Below, piece after piece: positions 4,783 through 22,786 of a stretch of 22,786 nt of DNA. Where the stretch lies: the IMG/VR virus record IMGVR_UViG_2547132281_000007, positions 1 through 22,786 of that record; one strand, given 5' to 3'. The notes beneath the pieces are model-generated. The model did not search any database and was not told where the DNA came from. It saw nothing but the letters and a program-made list of their open reading frames with translations. The position numbers and the translations under genes are program-made. The DNA comes from a virus (lineage: Duplodnaviria > Heunggongvirae > Uroviricota > Caudoviricetes). Position 1 is the stretch's first letter. The number at the start of each line of letters is the position of its first letter.

Positions 4783-5040
4783 TTGCCTGATGGAACCATC
4801 ATTCAAATGGGAATATCAGCATCAGGGCCATTAGGCTCACCTGTAAATATCACCCTGCCGATATCTTTCAGCAATACCAATTATTGTGTTGTTGCATCGT
4901 ACGATAATGCACGGTCAGGTGTGTCAACAATGGTTAGTTTTGCAGCGTTACCTGTTTCACCATCGCAATTTTCCCTGATGTCATCTGTGACTGAGCAAGG
5001 AATAAATCCTTTTGCTTACTGGATTGCTTTTGGAGATTAA
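4783..5040 (+). pseudogene. orphan tail-fibre C-terminal cassette (alternative variable domain, 5'-truncated)
   Basis: Open frame from 4720 (TTG start annotated at 4783), on the opposite strand to the tail genes and immediately followed by a tail-fibre-assembly gene. It has no N-terminal shaft domain and no upstream crossover site; the product resembles distal tips of phage side tail fibres. Confidence 0.5.
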
Positions 5041-5043
5041 TAA

Positions 5044-7593: not shown

Positions 7594-8195
7594 GGATTCA
7601 CTCTCATTGTGTCAATAACATGGACCGCCCCGCCTTCATGCGCGGTGCCACCGGAAATAATCGTTTCGTTGATATACGGATAGATCGTGATTTCTTCGCC
7701 AAGATAGCTGGCGGCTCCCACCCAATGCGGGCCGCTGGTCTGCAGATTGATGGACATGCCGATCATGTGGCGGCTACATGGTTTGGCATCGCTTATCAGT
7801 CGCTCAAGTTCCAGATAGGTATCTTCAGTGATGCCCTGGTCCTGCACGCCGATATCCAGGCGAAACGTGCCCGGTGTTTCTCCGGTCTGCCACCACTCAA
7901 TAATGCGGATCAGGAATCCGAACGGCTCCACCACCCGCCGCACGGCACTGGTGGTCCCTTTATGCTGATGAATATAAAAAGCATCCTTCACCACCTGGCG
8001 CTTGACGCTTTCTGTCCAGCCCTCGTCCCAGCGATCCACAGAGAACGCCCAGGCGAGATAAGGCAGGAAACTGACCGGACAGGTTGCCGGATTCCACAAG
8101 TCACGAAGCGGCACCTGCAGATCAGAAATCCCGCTGCAGGTTTGCGCCAGTCGGCGCTCCAGTGGTGTTGAACCCGGTGGCAGCAGACTATTCAT
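7590..8195 (-). CDS. baseplate assembly protein (P2 gpI-like)
   Basis: 201-aa ORF with LPYLAWAFSVDRWDEGW and GTFRLDIGV motifs, recalled as matching P2 gpI; 4-bp overlap with H. Confidence 0.88.
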   Translation of the reverse strand: MNSLLPPGSTPLERRLAQTCSGISDLQVPLRDLWNPATCPVSFLPYLAWAFSVDRWDEGWTESVKRQVVKDAFYIHQHKGTTSAVRRVVEPFGFLIRIIEWWQTGETPGTFRLDIGVQDQGITEDTYLELERLISDAKPCSRHMIGMSINLQTSGPHWVGAASYLGEEITIYPYINETIISGGTAHEGGAVHVIDTMRVNP

Positions 8196-9096
8196 CCGTT
8201 CCTCCGTTGGTTACGCTCCACTGCGTACATGATGCCGCCTGTGTTTTGTTCAGGACCACATCCGCCAGAGGAGAAGCCAGCTCCACACGCTGCACCCCCT
8301 CAACATGCAGGGCGGCAAAGATGGCGCTACGGCGAATATCCCGACCAAGACGCGTCTGACTGGCGATGTACTTCTGCAGGCTGGCTTTTGCCGCTGCCAT
8401 TACCGGCTCTGCTTCCGGTCCAGGATAGAGAAAAATGGTGGCTTCCACGCGATACGGGATGATTTCTGCGCTGCGAACCGTAAGACGGTCAGCCACCGGG
8501 CGGACGTTCTCACTGTTCAGAGCTTTTTCCACCACGTCCAGCAGGTCTTTTTCTGCAGTTCCATCGCCTTCGCGGCTAAGGACAGTCAGCACCACCTCTG
8601 CAGGTGCCGGGCTGGTTGCACTGGCATCCGCCACCCGACCGTCGGCGCTTCGGGCATGAAATTCATAAGCTGCAGTTGGCCCCGCAACAGAAAGCCCTTC
8701 AAAGGCTGCAGGCACACGCAGGCGCAACGCTTCATCGCTTTCCATCACAGCTGCAACGGGCGGCACAGCATCATTATCAGCAGGCGTCACCGTCAGGCGT
8801 GTCACGTTGTAGTTGGCAGCGAGCTGGTCAAGATCGCCGCCCATCGCGTAAGCCACCATCACCGCCTGCGCGGCTTCGTTAATGCGCTGGCGCAGAAGCA
8901 ACTCACGGTAAGCGTTCTCCTGCAACAATTTAGTGGCGGGTTCAGATTCCAGTTCCAGCGTGCGGATCACTGCTTCCTGCTCATCTTTCGGATGAAGCGC
9001 CACAAATTCTGCCTTGCGTTCGGCAAGCAGCGTCTCAAAGTCCGGCACATCCACAATCTGCGGTGCAGGCAACTGCGAAAGGTCAATCACTGCCAT
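8188..9096 (-). CDS. baseplate assembly protein (P2 gpJ-like)
   Basis: 302 aa from the ATG at 9096 (MAVIDLSQLPAPQIV...), preceded by a GGAG RBS; aligns in recall with P2 gpJ (MPIIDLNQLPAP...). The longer ORF to 9135 has no support. Confidence 0.88.
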   Translation of the reverse strand: MAVIDLSQLPAPQIVDVPDFETLLAERKAEFVALHPKDEQEAVIRTLELESEPATKLLQENAYRELLLRQRINEAAQAVMVAYAMGGDLDQLAANYNVTRLTVTPADNDAVPPVAAVMESDEALRLRVPAAFEGLSVAGPTAAYEFHARSADGRVADASATSPAPAEVVLTVLSREGDGTAEKDLLDVVEKALNSENVRPVADRLTVRSAEIIPYRVEATIFLYPGPEAEPVMAAAKASLQKYIASQTRLGRDIRRSAIFAALHVEGVQRVELASPLADVVLNKTQAASCTQWSVTNGGTDE

Positions 9097-9442
9097 TCTC
9101 TGCTCCTGTTGATACGGAAAGGGACACAGGCACACCGTTATTCCGCCGCCCGGTCAGCTCCACCACCATAGAACCGTCAAAGTTGCTGTTGATGGTGATG
9201 GAATCCAGCGTCAGCCGTGGCTCCCAGCGACTCAGCGCCACATACACTGCCGACATGACCTGCAGGCGTAATGCCGGATTTTGTGGCTGATCTATTAAAA
9301 CCGACAGGAGGGAACCATATTCCCGGCGGGCAATGCGGCTACCCTGCGGTGTCAGCAGAATGTCCCGCACCGACTGGCGCAGATGATCAATATCAGTAAT
9401 GACTTTGCCGCTGGTATTGTTCATCCCGCTATAAAGCGTCAT
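9083..9442 (-). CDS. baseplate protein (P2 gpW-like)
   Basis: 119-aa ORF MTLYSGMNNTSGKVITDIDHL...GSRIARREYGSLL, recalled as matching P2 gpW; the 3' end overlaps the J start. Confidence 0.88.
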   Translation of the reverse strand: MTLYSGMNNTSGKVITDIDHLRQSVRDILLTPQGSRIARREYGSLLSVLIDQPQNPALRLQVMSAVYVALSRWEPRLTLDSITINSNFDGSMVVELTGRRNNGVPVSLSVSTGAENGSD

Positions 9443-9564
9443 ACCGGGCCTCCGGTTGTATCGCCGCCTTTCAGGACGCCAGTATGCTGATGCGCATCAA
9501 CAACAATCCCGTTAGAGCTCATCGCTCCGCCGCCCTGGGTATCCGTTCTGGTCCGGTGCGCTGT
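9439..9564 (-). pseudogene. remnant 3' end of spike gene V (about 40 codons)
   Basis: Short open frame ending ...GGGAMSSNGIVVDAHQHTGVLKGGDTTGGPV* whose TGA overlaps the W ATG (ATGA), as V/W do in P2. It carries an HxH-type motif and is truncated by an in-frame stop at 9565-9567, with no N-terminal part present. Confidence 0.4.
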
Positions 9565-9593
9565 TCAACCGTGGGCGCAACAAAGCCGATAAG

Positions 9594-10436
9594 GTGGACA
9601 TCGACCTGTCCCACAACAATCTGGCCCCCGGCCTGCTGTGCGCAGACGGGCAATACCGCCAGATAGTCACCGTGGAAGATGCGGTGCGCGGCGGCTGTAA
9701 CCTGTTCGACCTCGACCAGTTGCGCATGGAGTACAGCCCGGACGAATACCAGAACCTGCTGATGTGTGAGTTCGTGGACGATCTCGCGTCCGTGTTCCCG
9801 CTCAGCGAGCTGCAGGCGTGCATGGTGGACAGCTGGGAAGTCTGGACCGACTTTCATGCACTGGCCCTGCGCCCGTTTGGCTGGCGCGAGGTGTGGATCG
9901 GTTATGACCCGGCAAAAGGTACGCAGAACGGCGACAGTGCCGGATGCGTTGTGGTGGCTCCGCCAGCCGTGCCGGGCGGTAAGTTCCGCATTCTTGAGCG
10001 TCACCAGTGGCGCGGGATGGACTTCCGCGCCCAGGCGGACGCCATCAAAAAACTGACCGAACAGTACAACGTGACCTATATCGGCATCGACTCGACCGGC
10101 GTCGGTCACGGGGTTTATGAGAACGTGAAAGCGTTCTTTCCTGCCGTCCGGGAGTTTGTCTACAACCCCAACGTTAAAAACGCGCTGGTACTCAAGGCCT
10201 ACGACATTATCAGCCACCGCCGTCTGGAGTTTGACGCCGGGCACACCGACATTGCGCAGTCATTCATGGCAATCCGTCGCGCAACCACCGCCAGTGGCAA
10301 CCGCCCAACCTATGAAGCCAGCCGCAGCGAAGAAGCCAGCCACGCCGATCTGGCCTGGGCAACAATGCACGCACTGTTTAACGAACCACTGCAGGGCGAG
10401 TCCGCCAATACCAGTAATATTGTGGAGATTTTTTGA
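9594..10436 (+). pseudogene. terminase large subunit (P2 gpP-like), C-terminal fragment only
   Basis: 280-aa ORF with a GTG start; motifs ...VWIGYDPAKG...DSAGCVVVAPP...KFRILERHQWRGMDF...YIGIDSTGVG...SHADLAWATMHA match the nuclease half of P2 terminase. The reading frame opens only at 9516, so the N-terminal ATPase half (about 300 aa) is absent. Confidence 0.75.
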
Positions 10437-11464
10437 TGGGAAAGAGTAAGAAGAACCGCGCTGCGTCGACGAACCAGATCCAGCATAAAAGTCAAACTAC
10501 AGCCGAAGCATTCAGCTTCGGTGATCCCGTTCCTGTTCTGGACCGCCGCGAACTACTGGACTATGTGGAATGCGTACAGACAGATCGCTGGTATGAGCCG
10601 CCAGTAAGCTTTGACGGACTGGCGCGCACCTTCCGCGCCGCCGTGCATCACAGTTCACCAATTGCGGTGAAATGCAACATTCTGACCAGTACCTACATCC
10701 CCCACCCGCTGCTCAGCCAGCAGGCTTTTTCACGTTTTGTGCAGGACTATCTGGTATTTGGTAACGCCTACCTGGAGAAACGCACGAACCGCTTCGGTGA
10801 AGTTATCGCCCTTGAGCCTGCTCTGGCAAAATACACCCGACGCGGGTTAGACCTGGATACCTACTGGTTTGTGCAATACGGTATGACAACCCAGCCGTAT
10901 CAGTTCACGAAAGGCAGCATTTTTCATCTGATGGAACCGGACATTAACCAGGAGATCTACGGCCTGCCCGGTTATCTTTCTGCCATTCCGTCCGCCCTGC
11001 TCAATGAGTCCGCCACGCTGTTCCGACGCAAATATTACATCAACGGCAGCCATGCAGGCTTCATCATGTATATGACCGATGCCGCGCAGAATCAGGAGGA
11101 TGTGAACAATCTCCGCAACGCGATGAAAAGTGCCAAAGGTCCTGGTAACTTCCGCAACCTGTTTATGTACTCGCCTAATGGCAAAAAAGACGGGCTTCAG
11201 ATCATCCCGTTGTCAGAAGTCGCAGCGAAGGATGAATTTCTGAACATCAAGAACGTGAGCCGGGACGATATGATGGCGGCGCATCGTGTACCGCCACAGA
11301 TGATGGGGATTATGCCGAATAATGTTGGGGGATTTGGGGATGTGGAGAAGGCTAGTAAGGTATTTGTACGCAATGAGTTAAATTCACTCCAACAACGAAT
11401 TAGAGAGGTGAATAATTGGCTGAATGATAAAGTAATAAAATTCCAAGCCTATTCGTTATCATGA
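10433..11464 (+). CDS. portal protein (P2 gpQ-like)
   Basis: 343-aa ORF overlapping the P stop; FSFGDPVPVLDRRELLDYVEC and SATLFRRKYYINGSHAGFIMY motifs recalled as matching P2 Q. Confidence 0.9.
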   Translation: MMGKSKKNRAASTNQIQHKSQTTAEAFSFGDPVPVLDRRELLDYVECVQTDRWYEPPVSFDGLARTFRAAVHHSSPIAVKCNILTSTYIPHPLLSQQAFSRFVQDYLVFGNAYLEKRTNRFGEVIALEPALAKYTRRGLDLDTYWFVQYGMTTQPYQFTKGSIFHLMEPDINQEIYGLPGYLSAIPSALLNESATLFRRKYYINGSHAGFIMYMTDAAQNQEDVNNLRNAMKSAKGPGNFRNLFMYSPNGKKDGLQIIPLSEVAAKDEFLNIKNVSRDDMMAAHRVPPQMMGIMPNNVGGFGDVEKASKVFVRNELNSLQQRIREVNNWLNDKVIKFQAYSLS

Positions 11465-11484
11465 AAAACCGACATTTATAATAT

Positions 11485-11511
11485 TAAAGGGTGAAAACAA
11501 CGCACCCTTTA
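11485..11511. terminator. hairpin between convergent portal gene and cargo membrane gene (possible bidirectional terminator)
   Basis: 9-bp stem TAAAGGGTG / CACCCTTTA with a 9-nt loop, flanked by A/T-rich sequence on both sides. Confidence 0.4.
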
Positions 11512-11533
11512 ATATATGCCAATACAAAATTAA

Positions 11534-12718
11534 CTATTCCTTATTCAAATCAACCAACTTGTCCATAAGAGTTTCATTGTTATACCCCTCATGCATTTCA
11601 GTTCGTTTCCCTGAAAATTTTCTTTTATGAAACTCATTTATATCAACATTAAGATGTTCACAAATTTGCTCAAACTCATCTAGATAGAGAGGATCAACAT
11701 AATAATTATCTGAAATCAATTTTTTTTTGCGCATTTCTTCGTAAGTTGATTTCAGAGTGTAACGTACTGGGCATAATGCCTTTATTATTTCATGAATAAA
11801 CTCATCATTGTTGACCCCATAATTTCTTAGCTTTAAAAATAGCTTTTTTCGATCATCGGCAATTTTAAAGCAAGCATCCGCAAACTCTAACTTTTCAACA
11901 CCACCAGCAACATAAAAGTCTAATAAAGCCTTCCTTTGAAGGCTAATATCTTCCTCCGGTTTATAATCGTTAACTTTAACACTTCTAATAGATTTCTCTT
12001 TATTTTTTCTACGAGCTGAAATAATATCACTTGGGATGCTAAGAGACATTGCAAGCAATGCCATAAGAATCAAACAAAGAAAAGCATATACAAACACCCT
12101 TATTATTTGATACCACCATTTACTTGTTGTAAAAACCTCACTCCAAAAAGATTCAGTCTGAGAGTCGCCACTCATTTTGAGAATATCAAACCCTTTTACA
12201 CCAGCGACTTTACCAACCAACGATATAACTGGACTCGAATTCTCACTCCCCAAAACAAAAAAGCTCACCCGAAATTTTTCGTCAGGCTCTATGATTACCG
12301 GATTGAAAACCAAAGAATCATTACTAATCCTTGGCTTTATATTGTCCTTTAGATACACACTGTCTGTAATAATTGTAGGTTTCTCTACAACTTCACCTCC
12401 AGAAACTCTTAACGTTAGTAATGATGAATCATCAAAGTCACCTTTCCTTATAACAGCATTACCAGTATTTTTAATTGTTACATTTATTAGCCATAAGTTT
12501 TTTTTGGCTGTTCTGAGTTCTTCCCCATTATATGAAATAGATAATCCTCCGACAGCTTGATGAATATCAAGAACTTTTGTCGGCTGCATTAGTTCAATCG
12601 AAATATTCCCTTGTTTTTCATAATAGAAGCCAACATAAATCGCCACAACAAAACTAACTAAAGCTACTACAGCCATGAATCCAGCAGACTTTACAAATCC
12701 CCATATCGAACTGAGCAT
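11534..12718 (-). CDS. hypothetical 2-TM membrane protein (prophage cargo; candidate superinfection-exclusion or abortive-infection factor)
   Basis: 394-aa ORF in AT-rich DNA. N-terminal TM helix (FMAVVALVSFVVAIYVGFYY), a beta-rich central domain, a second TM (WWYQIIRVFVYAFLCLILMALLAMSL) followed by a positively charged stretch (RRKNKEKSIR), then a helical C-terminal domain. No family recognised. Confidence 0.6.
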   Translation of the reverse strand: MLSSIWGFVKSAGFMAVVALVSFVVAIYVGFYYEKQGNISIELMQPTKVLDIHQAVGGLSISYNGEELRTAKKNLWLINVTIKNTGNAVIRKGDFDDSSLLTLRVSGGEVVEKPTIITDSVYLKDNIKPRISNDSLVFNPVIIEPDEKFRVSFFVLGSENSSPVISLVGKVAGVKGFDILKMSGDSQTESFWSEVFTTSKWWYQIIRVFVYAFLCLILMALLAMSLSIPSDIISARRKNKEKSIRSVKVNDYKPEEDISLQRKALLDFYVAGGVEKLEFADACFKIADDRKKLFLKLRNYGVNNDEFIHEIIKALCPVRYTLKSTYEEMRKKKLISDNYYVDPLYLDEFEQICEHLNVDINEFHKRKFSGKRTEMHEGYNNETLMDKLVDLNKE

Positions 12719-12781
12719 TTTTCGAACTACCCCTTATCTTATCTCATGAGTTGTTTTAGGATATTACACTATTTGCGCGCG

Positions 12782-12800
12782 CTCGTATCCCCGCCACGCC
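12782..12800 (-). other. candidate cos site (cohesive-end sequence of P2/186 type)
   Basis: Minus strand reads GGCGTGGCGGGGATACGAG followed by CGCGCGC. Recalled P2 cos is GGCGAGGCGGGGAAAGCAC and 186 cos GGCGTGGCGGGGAAAGCAT, about 14-15 of 19 matches. The block is GC-rich between two AT-rich genes. Confidence 0.5.
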
Positions 12801-12845
12801 TGCCCGCTTTGTGTAGTGGTTTTCATGCAGGTGCCTGATCCACGC

Positions 12846-12869
12846 AAAAGCCCGCCAGTTCTGGCGGGC
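12846..12869 (-). terminator. putative Rho-independent terminator downstream of the DUF2971-like gene
   Basis: + strand AAAA then gcccgcc-agttct-ggcgggc; on the minus strand this is a GC stem-loop followed by UUUU. Confidence 0.45.
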
Positions 12870-12935
12870 CTTAGCAAAAACGATCCTCAAACGGTCATGC
12901 AAATTCAGGCAGCATAGGCATGCACTGTTGTTAGG

Positions 12936-14054
12936 TTAGTTCGTAATGCCAATTTCCTTCAAAACTTTAGCCATTTCCGTCTGACTTAACTTGTTCCTGA
13001 ACAAAGTGAAATTTTTCATTTTTTCCGCTCGTTGCCCTTTTGAAATAGTAATCTTTCCTGATGCTGATAACTCAGAGTCAAAAAAATAACATATTGTTGA
13101 ATTTGAATTCTCCATATTTGACTTGATACAATTCCATATGCTTTCTTTTTTCATTTCACACATTCTAGGACCAAAAATGATCCCTTTAACAACATTAGCA
13201 TCATGATGAAAAATATGTCCAATATTTCGATTTACGCGTCTTTGAACATGCCGCTCACTCCCTATTCCTGCATTTGCCTCCGGAATAAACATTCGATATT
13301 CAGCTTCATATCTCCAAAATCTATTTTTAGTTAAAAATAACTCTGCAACATTTGCGCTTGGGTCTAGAAGTGAAACCTCTTTAGCCTGATTACTATATTT
13401 TATTGGCTTAACTGGAAAATTAAATTTATCTGATGAAAATAAATTTTCTCTTAGCTTCATTCCAGTATAGGGTATACCATCAATATTAAAATCCTGCGTT
13501 TCATAAATCACAACACAACCACTAAAGCCAGCAGCATAATGCGCCCACATCATACGATCTAACGCATTAGCTGAAAATGACACACTGAATACTGCAGGAA
13601 CTATTTTCCTATACAACCTTTCTTTGATACTGTTCTCGCAAAGTGAAACCAAATATTGGCGTGGTTCAGGAATATTTCCATAAATAGCAGAATTAATCAC
13701 ATTGATAGGAAGTAAACCATCATCTATGATCTTACGTATCTCATCAACGTGTGAGTCAAACAGGCTATCTAATGACTCAATGCTACTTTTTATTTTTTTT
13801 CCTCTAAAAATACGATTCAATCCCTTATGTATTTTCAAATTACTCAAATCCAATATGTGACTCAAATTTTTATAGGATTTATCGCAAGGAGAACGCAATA
13901 AAATATCCCATAATTTCAATTTATTATCGAAGCGATAATCTATATTGAGATCATTGGGATCATTCAATTGCGCAGGAGCGGAAAAATATAATTCATTATA
14001 ACGAATAGCTTTCTCGAAGAAGAAGTCCGGACGGTAATACTTGAAAAGATACAT
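12936..14054 (-). CDS. DUF2971-like hypothetical protein (prophage cargo at the P2 old/tin position; candidate anti-phage effector)
   Basis: 372-aa ORF in AT-rich DNA with an AGGT RBS. N-terminus MYLFKYYRPD...FSAPAQLNDPND and internal MMWAHYAAGFSGCVVIYE resemble my recollection of the DUF2971 signature (LYKY..., FNDPxE, MWshYa). Positioned between the replication/tum module and cos. Confidence 0.65.
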   Translation of the reverse strand: MYLFKYYRPDFFFEKAIRYNELYFSAPAQLNDPNDLNIDYRFDNKLKLWDILLRSPCDKSYKNLSHILDLSNLKIHKGLNRIFRGKKIKSSIESLDSLFDSHVDEIRKIIDDGLLPINVINSAIYGNIPEPRQYLVSLCENSIKERLYRKIVPAVFSVSFSANALDRMMWAHYAAGFSGCVVIYETQDFNIDGIPYTGMKLRENLFSSDKFNFPVKPIKYSNQAKEVSLLDPSANVAELFLTKNRFWRYEAEYRMFIPEANAGIGSERHVQRRVNRNIGHIFHHDANVVKGIIFGPRMCEMKKESIWNCIKSNMENSNSTICYFFDSELSASGKITISKGQRAEKMKNFTLFRNKLSQTEMAKVLKEIGITN

Positions 14055-14438
14055 GACATTACCTATAACATTGCAATATTAATAACCGTATGAAAACAGT
14101 TTGATTGTATTGATAATATCCTATTCTGCATATACCACAGTGTAAAGATTAATTTTAAATACCATATCCAACAGTAAATCATGTATCGACCGCCAGATAA
14201 GAAGCTTTTGAAAAACTTGGACGATAATTAATCAAAAGCTCTTCCCATCCTGTATCCTCTATCTCACTCTTTTGGACATTGAAAGAAGCCCCTCTGATCG
14301 GGAATGATTGTTTCCAGCGTTTGACCACGATATACAATATGATATTTGATGTCTTTTGATCAGATGGCTAACGCCTCGCATAGCTCGTTGTTCAACCTTG
14401 CTGACGCCAGAAGCAAGTTCAGACGCCAGCAACGTTTC

Positions 14439-14672
14439 TTAATGCAGCCAGCTGTCGTCTTCCCACACCTTCTGCATAATTTTCATCACTTGTTTCCTTT
14501 CTTCGTCCAGTTGCAGTCCGGTCAGTTCCACACCGTTAGAGCTACCTTTACGGATACGAATTACCGTTTTGGGATACAGGGGGCGCAGATTGCGGTAAAG
14601 CTCTGATTCAAGGGCGTCTAGGGTAGACTGGCTAATCTTCTGCTCTTTATCGATCATTATTTCAATGCGCAT
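14439..14672 (-). CDS. DinI-family protein
   Basis: 77 aa from the ATG at 14672, with a GAGGGG RBS 6 nt upstream. MRIEIMIDK...LDALESEL...VWEDDSWLH aligns in recall with E. coli DinI (MRIEVTIAK...AIDALAGEL...ETWESADDWF). The annotated ORF extension to 14744 has no support. Confidence 0.75.
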   Translation of the reverse strand: MRIEIMIDKEQKISQSTLDALESELYRNLRPLYPKTVIRIRKGSSNGVELTGLQLDEERKQVMKIMQKVWEDDSWLH

Positions 14673-14682
14673 AAAAGTCCCC

Positions 14683-14871
14683 TCAGCTGATGACATCCAT
14701 TGAGCGGTTGTATTCGTGGCTTCTGATTTTTGCCATGAGTTCATCTGTCAGTTCAGAAACCCACTGCAGGGCCAGCCCCTTCTCTTCATCACTACACTCA
14801 CTAGCCGCTACAAGCTTAAGAAAAAAATCAATGCGTTGGAGCTTCAAAGACTCCAAAAAATAGTCCTGCAT
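14683..14871 (-). CDS. small hypothetical protein in the SOS-controlled tum-like operon (possible antirepressor N-terminal module)
   Basis: 62 aa from the ATG at 14871, preceded by a perfect AGGAGG RBS with 4-nt spacing and lying directly downstream of the LexA box. The ORF extension to 14973 lacks an RBS. The gene sits where phage 186 carries tum. Confidence 0.5.
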   Translation of the reverse strand: MQDYFLESLKLQRIDFFLKLVAASECSDEEKGLALQWVSELTDELMAKIRSHEYNRSMDVIS

Positions 14872-14912
14872 CTTTCCTCCTATGACACCACAAGCAATAC
14901 TGTATACATAAC

Positions 14913-14932
14913 CACTGTTTATATTTACAGTA
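14913..14932 (-). promoter_or_regulatory. LexA box (SOS operator) upstream of the tum/DinI-like operon
   Basis: Minus strand TACTGTAAATATAAACAGTG is CTG-N10-CAG, matching consensus TACTGTATATATATACAGTA at 17 of 20 positions. It lies about 40 bp upstream of the AGGAGG RBS and is flanked by promoter-like hexamers (TTTACA ... TATACT). Confidence 0.6.
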
Positions 14933-15024
14933 TATAATAATCTTACTGATGTAAAACGTTTTTTTACGTTCATCAGCCTGATATGCCTGGTATTATTAAG
15001 AGCACGAATTGTTAATCCGCGTAA

Positions 15025-17439
15025 TTAATACAGGTTCCGCCACTTATCATCTTCCTGCAAACGCTGGTTCCGATAGAAAATACGCAGGCCTGCTCCTGAC
15101 GGAATGCTGCCGCCGCGAAGGAGTAAATCGACCTCTTTCTCGCTGCCATCAAATCTTCTGGACTTCAGTTCATAGACGAGCTGCTGTCGTTGATGGTCTG
15201 TAATTCGCTGTTTGTAGTCTCTACGCCGTTTCGGTTTCACCAGGCGTAACCTTGCAGCCAGTTCCCGGCGTTCTTTTTTGTTCATACTGTGCAGGTAATC
15301 GTGCAACTCCTTGTCATCCATACGGGTGATATCCGTTCTGGTATCCCCATCAGCTGATTTGTCTTTCCCTTGTTGGTACAAATTTTCAGCAAGGGGACAG
15401 TTATTGCCACGAGTCCAAGGGGCGCAAGCGCCCTGGTCGGCTGCCGCCTCCTGAACGTCAACGGCCTTACGAACCATTTTCCACTTCACTGCATGAGTGC
15501 AGATCTTGCCCTCTGCAATGGGTGACCAGATGCCATAAATACGAATACCGTGATCGCCATAGGCGGTCGGCTCTTCGTTAATTTCATAAGCAGTTCTGAT
15601 GAGGTGATATTTACGGGGAACCAGTACACCTCCCTGCTTCATGATATAGGTGGCAAAACAACCAGCATCAGCAGCAGCCAGAATGGCATCAAGGCGCGGG
15701 TTATCCAGTACCGGCACACCTGCTTTTTTGTCACCCTGCTGCCTTGCCGCCTGACCAGCCAGCAATCGCAGTTCACGGTAAGCCTGACGCCCCGGAATAC
15801 CAAAGAAGCGGAATTGCTGAACACGATGCAAAGACGCCCAGGCATTCACGTATTCAGCGTTATCACGAAGAGATTTACCCGTTTCCTTGCTGATCTCGCC
15901 AGCCAGACCACGCCCGTCAATGTTCTTACTGATGTATTTCGCTATGTAGCTTGTCGGCGTTCCTTTGCGCGGGTTAATCAGCTCAGACTTAAAGCGCGGC
16001 CCCGTGTTATTGCCCAGCTCCTCGCGGTCTTCACGGATAGCAAACTTACGCAACAATGCAGTAATGGCGCGGCGGTCTTTTTTGCGCATGAAACACAACA
16101 GGTGCCAGTGAACTGTGCCGTCGTGATGCGGCTCAGCCACCCGCACGCCATACCAGCGCAACCCGGCTTTGTGCATCGCCTTACGAAATGCAGCAAACAT
16201 ACCGACCAGATAATCGCTGCTTTGTCTTACCGTCGCGTTTTTCCAGGTCGGGTTGGGTCTGCCGTTATTTAGCGTGGAATGGAAACGTGACGGACAGGTA
16301 ATGGTGTAGAAAACGGCGCAGTCACCGCGCATTTCCGCGATAAGCTCCAGACCTTTAACACAGGCCATCATCTCATTGCGGCGATGCGCCGGGTTGCTGC
16401 AGCTGGCGTTTACCACATCTTCCATATCCAGCGCGTCTCCGTCTTCGTTCACCAGTTCATGAGAACGGAAAAACTCCAGCGACTTACGGCGCTGCTCACG
16501 TTTATGCATCACAGCTTCATAGCTGACATAGGGAGATGCTTTTTTGCTGACCAGGCAGACAGCACGCAACTGCTCTTCCCGCCATTCGCAACGCATCTTC
16601 CACAATTTCCGATACCACCAGTCGGCGCACAGCATACGCGCCAGCGAGCCCGGAATGAGTTCATAGGGCACTGGTTTACGGCGGTTTCTTTTCCGACGGA
16701 GTTGCTCAAACGCAGGCGGGATGACATCCAAACGTAGGGTTTCCGCTGCCACCCTTTCCCATGTCTTGCGGATTTCTTCTGGCTTAACATCATCGGTGGC
16801 GTACAAATCACCACAAGCGGCATCAAGACACATGCTCATATGCGCAGCGACAAGGGTAGACAGGCGTTTCACCTGATCCTGACTCATTTCAGGCAGGATC
16901 AGCAGGCCGTCCAGCCCTTCATGGCTTGCCATAAAGCGAAAAGAAGTGGATAGCTGACTGTCGCGTACATGCTCCAGTCGTTCCAGACATGGCTTAATCG
17001 TCTCACGCAGATAGCGAGAATAAGCCTTTGGCCTGCCCAGGCTGCTGAAATATTCGATACGTTGCATCAGCGGCTTGCTGATGTGGGAAGGCTGGGCGCT
17101 GACGTCCGCCAGAATGACCATGTCCGGGTTAAAACGCTGCTGTTCATGCGCCAGCTTTGCCCGACTAATGAGCTTATCCTGCTCCATTTCACGCTGGACA
17201 GGATCACGGGATTCATTAAAGAAATAACGCTCCCAGACCTGCTCACTCAGTGCATCGCGGCGCAGCTGTTCCTGCTCATTATCGGCAGCGTACAGAGTGA
17301 TCAGGTTTGAAAGTGCAGACTCCAGCGCAACTTCCGCCGGGTCCAGATACGGGTTAATGGCCTTTTTCGGGCCGTTCCATGAAAATGCTACAGCGGCCTC
17401 GTTAAAGCCGCTAGAGTTGCTCATATCGTCATGACTCAT
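15025..17439 (-). CDS. replication initiation endonuclease (P2 gpA-like, rolling-circle)
   Basis: 804-aa ORF of the size and family expected for P2 gpA (recalled as about 760 aa), directly downstream of dam with an ATGA overlap. Confidence 0.88.
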
Positions 17440-18293
17440 ACACGCACCTCGTACACAGCAGAACTATCCACGCCACACGAAGGATCAAATCCCACCCAGC
17501 AGCGCGCCCCGGAAACAGCAATGATTTCTGTTGCAGATTTACTCTCGCCAGCCGACACGCCGATGCTGCGTTTTGCCTTGATGTAGTGGTGAGTGAAATT
17601 TCGATACAGCGAACGGATCAGGGATGTGTCACTGTTAGAAACAATGACTGGATGACCTTCTGATGATCGATATTCAAGAACAGATGCCAGGTGATACTGG
17701 TCATCTTCAGTGAAACCATCAGTGTGATAGCCGGAAAACGTACCGTCATAAGGCGGATCGCAATACACCACATCCCCCACCTGCAGCATCGCCAGCGTTT
17801 CATCAAAGCTGGCGCAGATAAACGTTGCTCGCTGGGCTTTCTCTGCAAATGCGCGAATTTCTTTTTCAGGGAAATACGGATTTTTATAATTACCGTATGG
17901 AATGTTGAAATGCCCGCTCTTGTTATAACGACATAACCCACGGTAACCATGACGATTGAGATACAGAAAATATACCGCTTTCATGAAATCAGTAATTTCA
18001 GTGGAGTAATTAAACTCCTGCCTTATGTTGTAATAAGCCACCTCTCTGTTTGCTTCCTCAAATAAAGCTCTGGCACGAGATATAAACGCCTCACAATCAG
18101 CAGCAACCTTTTTATAGAGGTTGATTAAATCAGGATTAATATCCGCAACAAGATAGCTGGGGTAATCCGTCTCCATCATCACTGCACAGGAACCCGCGAA
18201 AGGTTCAACCAGTCGCGGACCAGCAGGAAGATGTTTTTTCAGTTCGGACATAATGGCGGTTTTATTTCCCGCCCATTTCAGGATGGTGCTCAT
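17436..18293 (-). CDS. DNA adenine methyltransferase (Dam-like)
   Basis: 285 aa from [11 protein letters not shown]; carries the DPPY catalytic motif (VYCDPPYDG) and FAGSCAV SAM-binding region. The upstream extension to 18353 is unlikely because it overlaps the TraR-like gene. Confidence 0.85.
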
Positions 18294-18517
18294 ACAGCAC
18301 CTCCGTTGTAATGTTTGCCTTTCAGCTCTGCGATTTCCTGACAGGTAATGCAAAGTTGCACACCCGGAATGGCACGGCGGCGTGCTGGCGGAATTGGCGC
18401 TTCACACTCAATGCAAAGCACGCGGGACACGCCCGGCGTTTTGGCACGGGCAGCACGGATATGGCGCTGGCGTTCTTCTTCAACGCGCTGCTGTACGAGA
18501 TCCATTGCATCAGCCAT
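18290..18517 (-). CDS. TraR/DksA-family C4 zinc-finger protein
   Basis: 75-aa ORF with CIECEAPIP...CITCQ (CxxC...CxxC), typical of small TraR-like proteins of P2-like phages and conjugative plasmids. Confidence 0.7.
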   Translation of the reverse strand: MADAMDLVQQRVEEERQRHIRAARAKTPGVSRVLCIECEAPIPPARRRAIPGVQLCITCQEIAELKGKHYNGGAV

Positions 18518-18756
18518 TAGTGGATCTCCTGCGCTTCGTTCTGGATTGCTTCAGCAGTTACACGCAATAGTTCTGCTGCTTCGACGTGGTTTAGCTGGCG
18601 GGATGTGATATGACACGCCAGGCTATCAAGGCGAGCTGCCATTGCTTCAGCCCTTGCCCGGCGTTCTTCCAGACGAGTCTCTGTCAGTAAAATATTAAGC
18701 CCAGCATCATCCGGTCCGGTTTTAGTCGTGAGGGTTTCAATATTACGCATAATCAA
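18517..18756 (-). CDS. hypothetical phage early protein
   Basis: 79-aa ORF in operon context, its start overlapping the upstream gene arrangement; no recognisable motif. Confidence 0.45.
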   Translation of the reverse strand: MIMRNIETLTTKTGPDDAGLNILLTETRLEERRARAEAMAARLDSLACHITSRQLNHVEAAELLRVTAEAIQNEAQEIH

Positions 18757-18817
18757 TTCTCCTGAATTTAGATAAAGGGATACCCGGCGGGTTTACGCCA
18801 TTAATTTCATTAGTTGG

Positions 18818-19159
18818 TTAATTCGGCATGGTTAGCCGTCTGGGAAATAAGCTCACCACTGCACGAAAATGATTCATTGCTTTAATCAACTCCCGCTTTT
18901 CGTCAGTGGTCAGCTCATTAATGCTGATGCTATGACGTTCAGCTGGAATTTTTGCCATAAAGAATATAGCAGCCAGTGCCCGTTTATTTTGTTCGTTATT
19001 GATATCCCGTGGATCACGCATATCTTTAATAAACCGCTCAAGCTCTGACTCAATATTCAGGCCAAATACTTTCGCCCTTAACTCCGCAATGTGATTAAGT
19101 CCATTCAGGCGTTCACCGGGGCTTAATGGAACAGTCGCCGCAGCGCTTTCAATAGCCAT
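18818..19159 (-). CDS. hypothetical phage early protein
   Basis: 113-aa ORF on the early-operon strand with a GGGGA-type RBS; no recognisable motif. Confidence 0.4.
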   Translation of the reverse strand: MAIESAAATVPLSPGERLNGLNHIAELRAKVFGLNIESELERFIKDMRDPRDINNEQNKRALAAIFFMAKIPAERHSISINELTTDEKRELIKAMNHFRAVVSLFPRRLTMPN

Positions 19160-19241
19160 TTATGCATCCCCACAACACATCTACTAAAAAATTTTTGATA
19201 TGATCCATTACCAACATATTGATAGCTAGAAGGAATCATCA

Positions 19242-19490
19242 ATGTTGAACCCGGTTGAAAGAGAGCGTATAGAGCAACTTGAAAACGAGATCTCCAGTCT
19301 TCGCGATGAGGTTGCTGTTCAACGAATTCTTGTTTCAGGTCTGATCCACTCCTTATTTCGAACTGACTCAGCAAATCAATCAGCATTTTTTGAGCTCCTC
19401 CGCGAAGAATTAAACAAACTTCCTTTAGGTTCGGTTAAACAACAAGAATTCACTCATCTGATACAGACACTGATAGATCGTTACCGATAA
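19242..19490 (+). CDS. hypothetical small coiled-coil protein (opposite strand inside early region)
   Basis: 82-aa ORF with an AGGAA RBS 8 nt upstream of the ATG and heptad-like sequence (ERERIEQLENEISSLRDEVAVQRIL). The overlapping minus-strand ORF 19123..19386 is low-complexity and less protein-like. Confidence 0.4.
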   Translation: MLNPVERERIEQLENEISSLRDEVAVQRILVSGLIHSLFRTDSANQSAFFELLREELNKLPLGSVKQQEFTHLIQTLIDRYR

Positions 19491-19705
19491 ATATTTCGCC
19501 GATAACGTTCAAGAGGTGATGTCTTTATACGCATCACTTCTTGTACTTTTTCACCACGTATAAAGGTTCCATCCTTTAGCGTGAAAAAGTAGCTACCATC
19601 GCCCGACAACGACGGATAGCAACTGAGCAAATCATCTTCAGGTACTGAATAATTCTCCCCTCTGTAACGAAAGTGATAAACCACTTCATTTTCTGCCGCA
19701 TACAT
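19481..19705 (-). CDS. hypothetical protein
   Basis: 74-aa ORF (MYAAENEVVYHFRYRGENYSVPEDD...) overlapping the 3' part of ORF 19576..19872 in another frame; only one of the two is likely to be real over the shared region. Confidence 0.3.
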   Translation of the reverse strand: MYAAENEVVYHFRYRGENYSVPEDDLLSCYPSLSGDGSYFFTLKDGTFIRGEKVQEVMRIKTSPLERYRRNIYR

Positions 19706-19872
19706 TTGGACTTTCTCCGTTTCCTCGTGGTCAATTCAGACAGCAATTCATCTTGTGAACGGCACGGATGCCAGCGTTTACCATCCTCACCCATGATCCA
19801 GCCGTGACCGTAGTGCATTGCCGGGCTTTGTTTTACCAGCAGCGATGCAAATGATGGTTCTTTCGTCAGCAT
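19576..19872 (-). CDS. hypothetical early protein downstream of cII (186 fil/dhr position)
   Basis: Internal ATG at 19872 just downstream of the cII stop (MLTKEPSFASLLVK...). The C-terminal third looks low-complexity, so a frameshift or the overlapping ORF may be the true reading. Confidence 0.3.
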   Translation of the reverse strand: MLTKEPSFASLLVKQSPAMHYGHGWIMGEDGKRWHPCRSQDELLSELTTRKRRKSKCMRQKMKWFITFVTEGRIIQYLKMICSVAIRRCRAMVATFSR

Positions 19873-19879
19873 AAGCACC

Positions 19880-20395
19880 TCACAGCAAACCGAATGAAGC
19901 ACCGAGGCCAGTCACGGTATCAACCGCACTCGCCATCGCAGGATTAGCCTGTAAACGGGCCTGCAATGAAACAGCAGCCAGCGCCATCAGTCGTGTAACA
20001 GAGTTAATGCTGCTGATCGCATCACGACGGCCTGCACTGGTTTTTACATCGCCAGAAACCGCACCTGCCGCGACACGCCCTATCTCTGCAGTTGCACTCA
20101 TGACGTAATGTGGCAGTTTCTCTTTTGCCACCTCATTAATCGGTACACATGGCAGACAATGAATCTGTGCCAGAAAACCATCTACCAGCGTTGAATCTTC
20201 AGTCAGATCGGTAAGCAGCCAGATTTCTGGTGCGGTTAATAGATGAGGCTGAGCTGGGTTCAGCTTGTTCCGCAGAATCTGCACATTCATGCCTGCACGT
20301 TCTGCCAGTTGCACCAGATTGTGGCGCAGTGCAAATGCACGACAGGCTTCATCAAAATGTGGATGTTTGGAAACTTGGTAATCAAACATGGTCAA
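19880..20395 (-). CDS. cII: CII-like lysogeny establishment protein (phage 186 type)
   Basis: 171-aa ORF; [24 protein letters not shown]...[17 protein letters not shown]...[22 protein letters not shown] recalled as near-identical to phage 186 CII. The true start may be the third codon. Confidence 0.85.
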
Positions 20396-20421
20396 TGCCT
20401 CTGATGTATTTCAGAATCGAA

Positions 20422-20643
20422 CTAACTAAGGTTTAGATTGCATTCTGAAAGCGCATCAACGGTCATGGCTGCTATGTTGATCATCACTTTTTCGCGTTTT
20501 TTATCTTTGCGCAAACGGTGACGGATAAGGCGTCCGTCAGCCAACATGTCATTGATGGTATCGATGGACAGCCCTGTCAGCTCGCTATAGCGCTCAATAG
20601 TCACATGAGGCGTGGTAAGAGTGATTGAAATGTTAGGTCTCAT
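20422..20643 (-). CDS. Apl/Cox-like excisionase and transcriptional regulator
   Basis: 73-aa basic ORF with an HTH-like segment, first gene of the early operon and divergent from the repressor, as apl in 186 or cox in P2. Confidence 0.65.
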
Positions 20644-20688
20644 GATGCAACATTCCTCGTTTAATGATGATTAATCAGGACGAATACG

Positions 20689-20726
20689 GATCGTTTGTAT
20701 TTTGTGAACACCATAAACATACGATC
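20689..20726. promoter_or_regulatory. candidate repressor operator in the lysis/lysogeny switch region
   Basis: Imperfect inverted repeat GATCGTTTGTAT ... ATAAACATACGATC centred near 20708, in the 119-bp region between the divergent apl and cI genes. Confidence 0.35.
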
Positions 20727-20768
20727 GCACAATGAAATCGTCAAGATAAAAGTTCACTTGGAGTGACC

Positions 20769-21338
20769 ATGAATTTGGAGAAAGGCGGACGAGGCGCTAT
20801 AGAGCGCATGGTAGAAGCTTATGGATTCAAAACTCGACAGGCGTTGTGCGATCATTTAGGAATCTCTAAAAGTACACTCGCCACACGCTACATGCGTGAC
20901 TCATTCCCAGCAGAATGGGTAATCCAGTGCGCCCTTGAAACGGGCACCTCGCTTAATTGGCTCACAACCGGACATGGTTCAAAGCAAACTTCAGGTAATA
21001 CAAATACTATGGAAGTTGCTAAATATGTATTATCTGATGGTGCCTTGCGTGAAGACGGTTTTTATATTTTTGATAAGGGATTTCTACCCTCTACGTTTAA
21101 AAAACCTTTTGTCATCACAGATAACAATTCTGAATTTATTTGTGATAAAGAATTTGATGATATACGTGATGGTAAATGGGTAATAAGTATTGATGGCGAA
21201 GTAACGATCCGTGACATTACTCGTTTACCCGGTGGAAGAATCTTCGTCGAGGGTGGAAACAGAGCCTTCGAATGTAAGATAGAAGACATTGAAATAATTG
21301 GTAAAATTATAAGTTTAACAGTCAAGTATGTTAAATAG
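20769..21338 (+). CDS. cI: CI immunity repressor (phage 186 type)
   Basis: About 190 aa; ...VEAYGFKTRQALCDHLGISKSTLATRYMRD...CALETGTSLNWLTTGHG... has an N-terminal HTH and a 186 CI-like C-terminal domain (186 CI recalled as 192 aa). ATG at 20769 has a GGAG RBS; an in-frame GTG at 20763 is the alternative start. Confidence 0.85.
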   Translation: MNLEKGGRGAIERMVEAYGFKTRQALCDHLGISKSTLATRYMRDSFPAEWVIQCALETGTSLNWLTTGHGSKQTSGNTNTMEVAKYVLSDGALREDGFYIFDKGFLPSTFKKPFVITDNNSEFICDKEFDDIRDGKWVISIDGEVTIRDITRLPGGRIFVEGGNRAFECKIEDIEIIGKIISLTVKYVK

Positions 21339-21353
21339 TACCGGGAGGAAACT

Positions 21354-21545
21354 ATGCTTGGTAAGGTATTTTTTGTGGTTTTGTCATGTTCTTTGTTATT
21401 AAACCCACTAACTACCTATGCTAGAAATTATCCCTGCTCAGGGAAAAAGGGAGGTGTTTCTCACTGTACCTCAGATGGCAAATTCGTTTGCAATGATGGA
21501 ACTATTAGTAAATCCAAAAAAATCTGTACTAAAAACTCACGATAA
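21354..21545 (+). CDS. small secreted cysteine-rich protein (moron between cI and int)
   Basis: 63-aa ORF with a strong GGGAGG RBS, a predicted signal peptide ([23 protein letters not shown]) and a 40-aa mature region with 4 Cys and many Lys; AT-rich. Confidence 0.45.
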
Positions 21546-21733
21546 CTTTTGCTTTTATATCTGCGTCTAAAATAAAAATGAGCCGCAGGTTAACCGCAAA
21601 AGTTACATGCTCACATAGCAAAAAGAATAGCCAACTTCATTATGGCTTCAGTGAGATGTATGGTCGTAGGATTTCATACATTGACACTGGTTATACATAC
21701 AGTAAAAATGCTCTCTACTGGAGGGCATTTTTT

Positions 21734-22786
21734 ATGGCAGTACGAAAACTCACCACAGGGAAATGGCTTTGCGAATGTTACCCCGCCGGACGAAGTGGGC
21801 GTCGTGTGCGTAAACAATTCGCCACCAAAGGCGAAGCTCTGGCTTTTGAGCGTCACACTATGGAAGAAACCGAATCAAAGCCATGGCTGGGCGAATCAGT
21901 GGATCGTCGAACCCTGAAAGACGTGGTTGAGCTATGGTTCAAACTACATGGTAAATCTCTGACTGCTGGGCAGCATGTCTATGACAAATTGCTGCTGATG
22001 GTTGACGCTCTGGGCAATCCTCTTGCAACCGATCTCACCTCTAAAATGTTTGCCCACTATCGAGATAAACGCCTAACAGGCGAGATCTACTTCAGCGAGA
22101 AATGGAAGAAAGGAGCAAGCCCGGTCACCATTAACCTGGAGCAAAGCTATCTAAGTAGTGTTTTTAGCGAACTATCCCGTCTGGGCGAATGGTCGTATCC
22201 GAACCCACTGGAGAACATGCGAAAATTCACCATCGCAGAAAAAGAGATGGCATGGCTTACCCATGAGCAGATTGTTGAATTACTGGCTGATTGCAAACGT
22301 CAGGACCCAATTCTAGCACTGGTAGTTAAGATATGCTTAAGCACAGGCGCACGCTGGCGAGAAGCCGTAAATCTTACTCGTTCACAGGTGACCAAATACC
22401 GAATTACCTTTGTAAGAACGAAGGGGAAGAAAAACAGAAGCATCCCTATCAGTAAAGAGCTTTACGAAGAGATCATGGCGCTTGATGGGTTCAATTTCTT
22501 CACAGACTGCTATTTTCAATTTTTATCCGTGATGGAAAAAACGTCTATCGTGCTCCCTCGCGGCCAACTCACACACGTTCTGCGCCATACGTTTGCGGCG
22601 CACTTCATGATGTCGGGTGGAAACATTCTGGCCTTACAAAAAATTCTCGGACACCACGATATAAAAATGACTATGCGTTACGCACATCTGGCACCGGATC
22701 ATCTGGAAACAGCGCTCCGTTTCAATCCTCTGGCAACGCTGCCAAGTGGCGACAAAGTGGCGGCAGCGGTTGGCATTACCCCGTAA
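21734..22786 (+). CDS. int: tyrosine integrase (P2/186 Int family)
   Basis: 350 aa from MAVRKLTTGKW (recalled P2 Int starts MAIKKLDDGRY), with catalytic residues in context: ARWREA (Arg), HVLRHTFA (His-x-x-Arg) and MRYAHL (Tyr). The stop codon is the last three bases of the window. The annotated upstream extension to 21578 is unlikely. Confidence 0.9.
   Translation: MAVRKLTTGKWLCECYPAGRSGRRVRKQFATKGEALAFERHTMEETESKPWLGESVDRRTLKDVVELWFKLHGKSLTAGQHVYDKLLLMVDALGNPLATDLTSKMFAHYRDKRLTGEIYFSEKWKKGASPVTINLEQSYLSSVFSELSRLGEWSYPNPLENMRKFTIAEKEMAWLTHEQIVELLADCKRQDPILALVVKICLSTGARWREAVNLTRSQVTKYRITFVRTKGKKNRSIPISKELYEEIMALDGFNFFTDCYFQFLSVMEKTSIVLPRGQLTHVLRHTFAAHFMMSGGNILALQKILGHHDIKMTMRYAHLAPDHLETALRFNPLATLPSGDKVAAAVGITP

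Follow-up and report, generated by a model that had tools for sequence, protein, structure and literature searches.

A predicted exported YdcA-family mini-protein encoded behind the cI repressor in the lysogenic operon of a decayed P2/186-like prophage

The DNA considered here (hereinafter the window, i.e., the whole analyzed stretch of 22,786 nucleotides from the Caudoviricetes record IMGVR_UViG_2547132281_000007) is a decayed P2/186-like prophage lying beside a host permease gene. It is devoid of tail sheath, tube, tape-measure, capsid, terminase and lysis genes, and codes for replication, switch and integration functions. At its right end, an apl/cox-type gene and the cI repressor gene diverge from the switch region, with a small ORF coding for 63 amino acids and a structured spacer placed between cI and the integrase gene int (Table 1). 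The stop codon of int ends on the last base of the window, which is also the prophage end in the IMG/VR contigs, and an IMG/VR scan yielded no copies other than identical ones in prophages of this type. RefSeq labels the genes at the identical locus as phage repressor protein CI, YdcA family protein ("hypothetical protein" in older annotations) and phage integrase. Within the switch region we find a single weak promoter-like site, on the minus strand at 20744..20716. RefSeq-style annotation starts cI at the ATG at 20769, and 15 nt separate its TAG stop (21336–21338) from the small ORF. From about window position 21656–21676 onward, the sequence is 96–97% identical at the nucleotide level to the integrases of Klebsiella P2-like phages.

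Table 1. Features at the switch and integration end of the window
Feature	Coordinates	Strand	Basis and remarks
apl/cox-type excisionase-repressor gene, first of the divergent lytic operon	20422..20643	-	phrog_575 "Cox-like excisionase and repressor", E = 6.4e-31
apl-cI switch region, face-to-face lytic and lysogenic promoters expected	20644..20762	.	Analogy with phage 186 pR/pL
186-type CI immunity repressor	20763..21338	+	PF07022, E = 2.8e-33; PF16452, E = 5.4e-29; CI label at identical loci
Shine-Dalgarno GGGAGG	21343..21348	+	5 nt before the small-ORF ATG; read directly from the sequence
Small ORF (YdcA-family gene)	21354..21545	+	ATG start, 63 aa and stop; phrog_6000, NF007463, RefSeq label, pN/pS
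Predicted Sec signal peptide, residues 1–23	21354..21422	+	Predicted cut after T-Y-A23; sequence rules, Dis2 homolog
Mature 40-aa cationic domain with four invariant Cys (YdcA/PF27300 domain)	21423..21542	+	Alignment, AF2, Dis2 homology
AT-rich, strongly structured spacer	21546..21733	+	MFE -64.1 kcal/mol, z = -5.4
13-bp hairpin with A-tract and U-tract, just before the int ATG	21704..21732	+	-17.5 kcal/mol, z = -5.5
Tyrosine integrase (int), 350 aa	21734..22786	+	PF24624, E = 3.2e-32; PF00589, E = 7.2e-22

Phage 186 has no gene between cI and int: its lysogenic operon is annotated as pL, cI, int and orf69, with the cI stop overlapping the int start. Because of this overlap, the window appears to carry an insertion of about 395 bp in a 186-type lysogenic operon, made up of the small gene and the structured spacer. 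A preliminary description of this DNA had set the ORF in an AT-rich gap where P2 has no gene. The region is AT-rich (GC of 0.34–0.37 over 21300–21750 as compared to 0.45–0.55 in the flanks) and the prototype 186 lacks a gene there, but the C-terminal half of cI is as AT-rich as the small-ORF region itself. Its placement of the ORF for the lysogenic transcript holds, the gene being on the same strand, directly behind cI and within the 186-type operon, and the coordinates of the ORF and its strong ribosome-binding site are likewise borne out.

By our own arithmetic, the chance of a 63-codon open frame at 36% GC is about 1% per start. The ORF is far beyond chance expectation, and it is almost certainly a genuine translated gene. 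Of its 12 differences from the allele of E. coli B, 11 are synonymous and one, R24K, is conservative, with a pS of 0.257, a pN of 0.007 and a pN/pS of about 0.03, as against 0.179, 0.023 and 0.13, respectively, for cI. The small ORF is under strong purifying selection, tighter than that on the adjacent cI. Between E. coli and the Haemophilus phage HP2, the small proteins are 54% identical overall and about 74% identical in the mature part, as against 33% for the CI proteins.

The protein opens with an n-region (MLGK), followed by a 12-residue hydrophobic core with a mean Kyte-Doolittle value of 2.86 and by T-Y-A at positions -3 to -1. By sequence rules this leader resembles a signal peptide, with a hydrophobic stretch and an Ala-x-Ala type site; the Ala at -1 is kept in at least 90% of the family, and 124 of 133 YdcA-family representatives possess a hydrophobic leader. 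The mature part comprises 40 residues without a membrane-spanning segment, among them 7 Lys, 2 Arg and 2 Asp (net charge +7, pI 9.7, about 4.3 kDa), and its four cysteines (C28, C38, C46 and C58) are invariant across 35 aligned homologs. An AF2 model of this domain has a mean pLDDT of 80.9 and shows two short strands. Thus, the initial picture of a signal peptide preceding a 40-aa Lys-rich part with four cysteines is sound, the leader being signal-peptide-like by prediction, and these sequence rules together with a solved homolog discussed below point to export of the small protein. A fifth cysteine, C12, lies in the leader and is without conservation; we rejected a lipoprotein reading of V-L-S-C12, as this Cys is only 12 residues from the start and is absent in most homologs.

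Homology searches reveal what had been missed in the preliminary description, namely that the small ORF is a member of the already catalogued YdcA family and not a new gene. The NCBIfam model NF007463 (PRK10040.1-2) matches it over profile positions 1–58 of 58 with 115.8 bits (E = 5.3e-34) against a curated cut-off of 93, and the phage family PHROG 6000 matches it at full length (profile positions 1–56 of 56, E = 1.9e-34). A further model, NF007462, which we take to be the equivalog for K-12 YdcA-type proteins, scores 68.5 bits, under its cut-off of 118; because of this score, the small ORF is best classified as a paralog distinct from NF007462-type YdcA. The Pfam-A release searched predates PF27300 and gave only GULLO2-like_3rd (E = 0.075), which we take as chance; a precomputed PF27300.1 tag is present on the representative of the identical-protein cluster (P0001) and on nearly all homologs. 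A weak match to lpg1681_fam (E = 0.11) was also disregarded, and PADLOC-DB v2 returned no family for the small protein at E up to 1.

At 90% identity, the exact protein is placed in a cluster of 355 members from more than 1,000 contigs, and with an E-value limit of 0.001 an exhaustive HMM search collects 451 clusters at 50% identity. When one genome per species is scanned, 225 loci emerge in Enterobacterales, Moraxellaceae, Neisseriaceae, Burkholderiales, Rhizobiales and other lineages. Across the family, the leader is free to vary and the core of the domain, which spans about 35 aa, is almost invariant. Fourteen residues are invariant in 35 sequences (P27, C28, S29, K32, G33, G34, C38, F44, C46, G49, S52, S54, K55 and C58); the window protein has all of them, along with the motifs P-C-S-G-K-K-G-G and C-N-D-G-x-x-S-x-S-K.

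The best-known member, YdcA of E. coli K-12 (b1419; PRK10040 models NF007462, NF007463 and NF007464; PF27300; PHROG 6000), has the same Sec-type leader and four-Cys domain, and identity between chromosomal ydcA copies and the window protein is about 79% over the mature core. While K-12 ydcA lies between cybB and trg, the window gene is phage-borne, in the lysogenic operon behind cI, and its regulation is therefore expected to differ from that of the chromosomal gene. Acid induction is reported for E. coli ydcA, and E. coli W deleted for it becomes sensitive to 300 mM 3-hydroxypropionate (PMC7642389); in our literature search for "YdcA" these were the only functional statements found on E. coli ydcA. 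By title and context, most of the literature under this name concerns other proteins, such as one from a B. subtilis rhomboid-protease context and the product of a gene of the gonococcal genetic island.

The gene is among the commonest accessory genes of E. coli prophages, strongly selected and kept in decayed prophages. Among 5,426 complete E. coli genomes, 647 contain this cI type and 630 the ORF region, which covers at least 80% of the query in 589 of the 630. The carriers, among them the B/BL21 lineage, ATCC 8739 and HS, make up about 12% of complete genomes. The prophage of E. coli B has otherwise decayed to pseudogenes, but its cI, ORF and int are intact; thus, both in the window and in the E. 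coli B remnant the small gene is kept intact in a decayed prophage. The refuting condition named in the preliminary description, absence or disruption in close relatives, thus gives a mixed picture: the ORF is intact in about 589–630 of the 647 genomes, but E. coli AHB21, with about 90% nucleotide identity in cI, has a second CI-like gene and a KAP NTPase in its place, and in E. coli 730V1 an IS5-family element truncates it. The Klebsiella phage KP12, with a 96% identical integrase, lacks the small ORF and has a PD-Lambda-1 ATPase in the gap. E. coli TUM13773 and JA0072 have a 60-aa allele, with a PDC-S20/KAP NTPase gene between it and int; from this layout, extra cargo appears to enter 3' of the small gene, and the latter keeps its place next to cI. 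As relatives carry defence genes in the gap or lack the ORF, the gene is classified on these comparisons as a dispensable accessory gene of the lysogenic operon.

The attachment to cI extends to distant phages. The deposited phages with a 186-type CI number 140, and only three of them, all Haemophilus HP2/S2 records, have the gene; in HP2 it is an unannotated 60-codon ORF whose ATG overlaps the cI stop, in the order cI, YdcA-like, int. The same order recurs in three Yersinia species with a divergent cI, an HP2-type integrase and a gap of 48 nt. This fixed place behind cI, shared by phages of E. coli, Yersinia and Haemophilus, hints at a function linked to lysogeny, and both its constancy across distant P2/186/HP1-like phages and the unannotated HP2 copy appear to be new. 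In Moraxella and Acinetobacter phages the gene is located elsewhere, among structural genes. Thus, prophages of Escherichia, Yersinia, Haemophilus, Moraxella and Acinetobacter carry it, as do some plasmids. Most bacterial copies are chromosomal and without a recurring neighbor: we found no conserved operon partner across 80 loci (147 flanking genes, 68 Pfam families), the only repeats being cI/int and lineage-specific genes, such as cybB and trg at the E. coli ydcA locus. A UniRef label, "Conjugal transfer protein", on the identical peptide was set aside, as no T4SS genes flank the gene in the 80 loci and only 14 of its 58 carrier plasmids are predicted to be conjugative.

These patterns bear on the earlier proposal of a lysogenic-conversion factor, of which one half survives: the gene is accessory, being absent in 186, KP12 and AHB21, but an exported toxin or immunity peptide is not supported. 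On the comparative evidence, candidate lysogenic-conversion gene, or moron, is a fair label for it. Morons expressed in lysogens include rexAB (co-transcribed with cI), bor and lom of lambda, as well as the defence cargo of P2-like hotspots. Like these, the window gene is non-essential, of atypical composition and placed for transcription in the lysogen; unlike them, its product is a tiny, predicted periplasmic domain rather than an ATPase, nuclease or membrane protein. Similarly, the same cI-int gap in relatives is occupied by the PD-Lambda-1 and PDC-S20 defence genes, whereas the window gene has no PADLOC match.

Domain architectures offer a further handle on the function of the family. In a survey of its 149 best representatives, several proteins contain two or three tandem copies of the YdcA domain and 10 carry other Pfam domains. 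The latter include the nuclease domains Endonuclease_NS (3 proteins), staphylococcal nuclease (SNase; 1) and a PLD/Nuc-type domain (1), as well as the T6SS domain VasL (1), DUF4124 (2), the PBCV basic adaptor (2) and a borderline TerY_C (1). In the fusion proteins whose sequences were inspected, the signal peptide leads straight into the YdcA domain, and a low-complexity linker then connects this domain to the enzyme. Judging by these domain assignments, every fusion partner of known activity is a predicted secreted non-specific nuclease, and the nucleases belong to three unrelated folds. The domain itself bears a net positive charge in 95% of 139 copies (mean of +3.1 on about 31 residues), with K32 and K55 being invariant in the 35 close homologs.

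A search of the PDB with the family profile recovers one solved structure, Dis2 of Legionella (chain AN of 7MUC/7MUD; hmmsearch E = 1.4e-5). The mature part alone reaches it in a phmmer comparison (E = 2.2e-4) with both of its lobes aligned, hhalign gives 93.7% (E = 1.9e-7), and Foldseek places it at ranks 1–2 of 350,542 chains (probability 0.89, TM 0.63). Some Dis2-family proteins bear the PF27300 tag, and the window protein and Dis2 share the pattern C-[CS]-x3-GG-x3-C-x5-G-x2-VCN[DN]G-x2-S. The cryo-EM model of Dis2 begins 1–2 residues past an A-F-A that aligns with the predicted cleavage site. Dis2 lies under the outer membrane, its two similar lobes pinned by five disulfides, and contacts the lipoproteins DotC, DotD and DotK rather than the channel; it is dispensable for assembly and intracellular growth, with a subtle effect on the translocation of some effectors (PMC8486379; PMC12716638). 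It has been described as Legionellales-specific and without obvious homologs (PMC8486379; PMC12716638). The above comparisons indicate that Dis2 probably arose as a tandem duplication of the widespread YdcA-type domain.

Both proteins are disulfide-rich and exported, the window protein by prediction. However, Dis2 has two lobes, five disulfides and extra cysteines as against the single free domain and four Cys of the window protein. Moreover, the basic SKSKK tail belongs to YdcA proper and is missing in Dis2, which has an acidic SEEC in lobe 2. Finally, Dis2 is a Legionella-restricted part of a secretion machine, whereas the window protein occurs in hosts without Dot/Icm and has cI and int as its neighbors. 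The homology between YdcA and Dis2 and the nuclease fusions appear to be new, and together they supply cheap, testable hypotheses for the family.

Taken together, the explanation that we favor overall, by a modest balance of probability, is that of a functional accessory gene in the lysogenic operon: a phage-borne ydcA paralog coding for a periplasmic binding module. Under this proposal, and as the layout and the operon of 186 suggest, transcription from the cI promoter in the lysogen would run through cI into the small gene, for which a strong ribosome-binding site of its own is present. The Sec pathway would export the precursor, with cleavage after Ala23, and the four cysteines would form two disulfides to give a 4.3-kDa mini-domain of pI ~9.7 with the two strands of the AF2 model. 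On the sequence and its context, export and expression with cI in lysogens are very probable. As the domain has no catalytic features and recurs in fusions, in tandem arrays and, by comparison, as the lobes of Dis2, it would act as a binding module, and a non-enzymatic binding role is a likely one.

The nature of the ligand is a more tentative matter. The nuclease fusions, the tandem arrays and the conserved cationic surface favor a polyanionic, polymeric ligand, and we speculate that the domain binds nucleic acid or another polyanion, with the free version taking hold of periplasmic DNA. Binding of this kind might alter how foreign DNA, whether phage, conjugative or transforming, enters the cell, or how extracellular DNA is handled. 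DNA is our tentative candidate, and an outer-membrane protein complex or envelope component a possible but weaker one; on sequence data the two stand close together, with DNA favored as the somewhat likelier. The functional analogy that we favor is with ComEA and the DNA-binding accessory domains of nucleases, which would likewise be small, exported and basic. ComEA-type periplasmic DNA-binding proteins use helix-hairpin-helix motifs, and their fold is unrelated to the disulfide-stabilized mini-domain predicted here.

The most serious alternative is that the free domain is an envelope-docking adaptor, which attaches to assemblies of outer-membrane lipoproteins or to the inner surface of the outer membrane and alters stress or acid tolerance of the lysogen, or its secretion, pilus or phage-receptor machines, with DNA untouched. 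We consider this unlikely, albeit far from negligible. Dis2, the sole homolog of solved structure, is located beneath the outer membrane and touches DotK, DotC and DotD; one family member is fused to the T6SS VasL domain; the acid induction of ydcA and the 3-hydroxypropionate sensitivity of its deletion in E. coli W (PMC7642389) are in keeping with an envelope role; and the nuclease fusions can be read as envelope tethers. Yet a Dot/Icm system is absent from E. coli and from most other hosts of the family, no conserved neighbor points to a partner complex, Dis2 lacks the conserved cationic patch by which YdcA proper is defined, and loss of Dis2 barely affects its own machine.

Within our preferred reading of a periplasmic binding module, exclusion of incoming DNA or phage as the phenotype is doubtful. 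It fits the slot between cI and int, which is otherwise occupied by defence genes. Envelope-level superinfection exclusion is known from Imm and Sp of T4, Llp of T5, Cor of phi80/N15, SieA of P22 and gp15 of HK97. These are small, phage-encoded and envelope-acting, as is proposed for the window protein; however, we found no relationship of sequence or fold between it and them, and it differs from lipoproteins of the Llp/Cor type in having no usable lipobox. A bolder and improbable extension is that cI and the YdcA-like gene form an old two-gene immunity module of P2/186/HP1-like phages, in which the repressor would block superinfecting genomes inside the cell and the exported mini-protein would act as a periplasmic entry barrier, either by binding DNA or by docking to injection or secretion machines. 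If this were true, the chromosomal ydcA genes of Enterobacteria would be domesticated copies.

An exported toxin, a bacteriocin-like peptide or an immunity peptide, which would kill competitors or protect against a toxin, is very unlikely. The protein is small, cationic and cysteine-rich with a leader, and mobile elements, i.e., prophages and some plasmids, carry its gene. However, no immunity, processing or export gene is linked to it in the 80 loci or the phage contexts, and single-copy chromosomal members of the family are widespread, the conserved E. coli ydcA among them. The domain, moreover, turns up again at the N-terminus of enzymes, in tandem arrays and as a structural component of a secretion machine, and a plain Sec leader would deliver only to the Gram-negative periplasm. 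We give still less weight to a periplasmic protease inhibitor. The Cys spacing and the DG.FVC motif weakly resemble Pin-II (potato type II) repeats, which are the next matches in the PDB by sequence after Dis2 (1fyb, 1ytp, 5zfo, 2jzm, 1oyv and 1tih) with three of four Cys aligned, but their E-values of 0.07–0.8 are not significant, the second Cys is out of register, Pin-II repeats have eight cysteines, and no such structure occurs among the 50 Foldseek matches listed.

The reading with the least credence of all, that the ORF is a non-functional frame arisen by chance in an AT-rich spacer which really serves to control int at the RNA level, has in its favor the AT-richness of the region and the strong structure downstream, but the breadth of the family (conserved across Proteobacteria, with the 451 clusters noted above) and the codon-level purifying selection in frame refute it for practical purposes, the curated HMM matches and the position of the structured RNA after rather than within the ORF also speaking against it.

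The spacer itself begins with a long hairpin at about 21544–21605, directly 3' of the small-ORF stop. The spacer is identical to that of the E. coli B allele at 177 of 188 positions, and in this comparison we found no covariation support for the long hairpin, two pairs of which are broken uncompensated in that allele. An Rfam search of 20300–22000 gave only Phe-leader (E = 0.84), far under gathering and taken as chance. The second hairpin, at the end of the spacer, pairs GGAGGG, the would-be ribosome-binding site of int; a simple terminator scan missed it. We propose that it may be terminator-like and/or a translational attenuator of int, and the layout of the locus suggests that cI and the small gene are co-transcribed and that much of their transcript or its translation would end before int. 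This second hairpin is identical in the E. coli B allele.

The gap between cI and int, in which the small YdcA-family ORF lies, behaves as a cargo hotspot in P2/186-like prophages. In Klebsiella phage KP12 it holds PD-Lambda-1 (E=7e-120), in E. coli TUM13773 and JA0072 a PDC-S20/KAP NTPase (E=3e-171), and in E. coli AHB21 a KAP NTPase together with a second CI-like gene. In E. coli O19:H7 730V1 (locus L171, 2516-3798), an IS5-family (ISKpn26-like) insertion cuts the 3′ end of the YdcA-like ORF, providing a natural knockout usable for phenotype comparison.

Matches by tblastn place YdcA-family ORFs in the Haemophilus phages HP2 and S2. The HP2 version (NC_003315) is an unannotated 60-codon ORF, with its ATG overlapping the stop codon of cI; it is followed by orf1(S), coding for a 254-aa product likewise with a signal-peptide-like leader at its N-terminus, and then int. 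In Moraxella phage Mcat17 and Acinetobacter phage Ab11510-phi, the YdcA-family gene instead sits amid genes for virion structure, and a few small genes separate it from a long downstream gene that is annotated as a tail protein in the former and as hypothetical in the latter. Therefore, phages have acquired the family on at least two occasions, at different genome positions; several of the phage records leave the gene unannotated.

The Legionella Dot/Icm protein Dis2 (Lpg0823) has been described as Legionellales-specific and as lacking obvious homologs (PMC8486379; PMC12716638). Profile comparison of Dis2 (PDB 7MUC/7MUD chain AN) with the YdcA/PF27300 domain (hhalign 93.7%, E=1.9e-7) shows the two to be homologous, and Dis2 looks like a tandem duplication of this widespread domain.

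The prophage itself (window 2900-22786) is a decayed remnant that keeps the genes for replication, switch and integration. The tail-fibre genes start within about 700 bp after D/U; hence, the prophage lacks genes for the sheath, tube and tape measure. Those for capsid, terminase and lysis are likewise absent from the interval between V and the portal gene Q in the window. Cargo in P2-like phages usually lies between Q and the replication gene, and here the window has two large minus-strand ORFs with no Pfam match (11534-14054). One of them matches a candidate defence family, and the other, of 394 aa (11534..12718), has no match in Pfam or PADLOC.

Location of features in the window and in the comparison loci (L handles; positions within each locus)
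Feature	Position	Strand	Remark
Host permease gene	window 935-2620		Asp-Al_Ex + TrkA_C
Genes D and U	window 3165-4741
Gene V	window about 9519-10244
Portal gene Q	window 10433-11464
372-aa ORF	window 12936..14054	-	PDC-S31, E=1e-23
Sigma-70 promoter-like site TTAACA-17-TATAAT	window 21306-21334	-	near-consensus, 11/12
Promoter-like site TTGACA-17-AAAAAT	window 21681..21709	+	overlaps pre-int hairpin
cI-int gap cargo	L005 822-2498; L006 2712-4043; L169 2952-4283; L170 2827-4966
YdcA-family ORF, HP2	L001 2920-3102 = NC_003315 record 2486-2668	minus strand of record
YdcA-family gene, Mcat17	L002 3438-3617
YdcA-family gene, Ab11510-phi	L003 3501-3599

In the plus-strand stretch upstream of int (window 21681-21733) lies a 13-bp hairpin (-17.5 kcal/mol, z = -5.5) that carries both an A-tract and a U-tract; its 3′ end directly abuts the int ATG, and the GGAGGG of int is paired within it. 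The hairpin may serve as a terminator, as a brake on the translation of int, or as both; over the last 90 nt or so upstream of int, the window and the E. coli B allele are identical. The minus-strand promoter-like site at the junction of cI and the small ORF is oriented antisense into cI, and may be a chance product of AT-rich sequence because three promoter-like sites were found as against 3.9 expected.

The same small ORF recurs in other database records. JAEWTL010000113.1, a 3,057-bp contig of a 'Bacillota bacterium' MAG, has an identical copy alongside apl, cI and int, all close matches to the E. coli prophage of the window, and its Bacillota assignment probably reflects a binning error or contamination. 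Two 55-kb E. coli 'plasmid' records (NZ_CP148400.1 and NZ_CP148585.1) also encode the identical 63-aa protein; these records may represent phage-plasmids, or else P2-like prophages that were either excised or misassembled.
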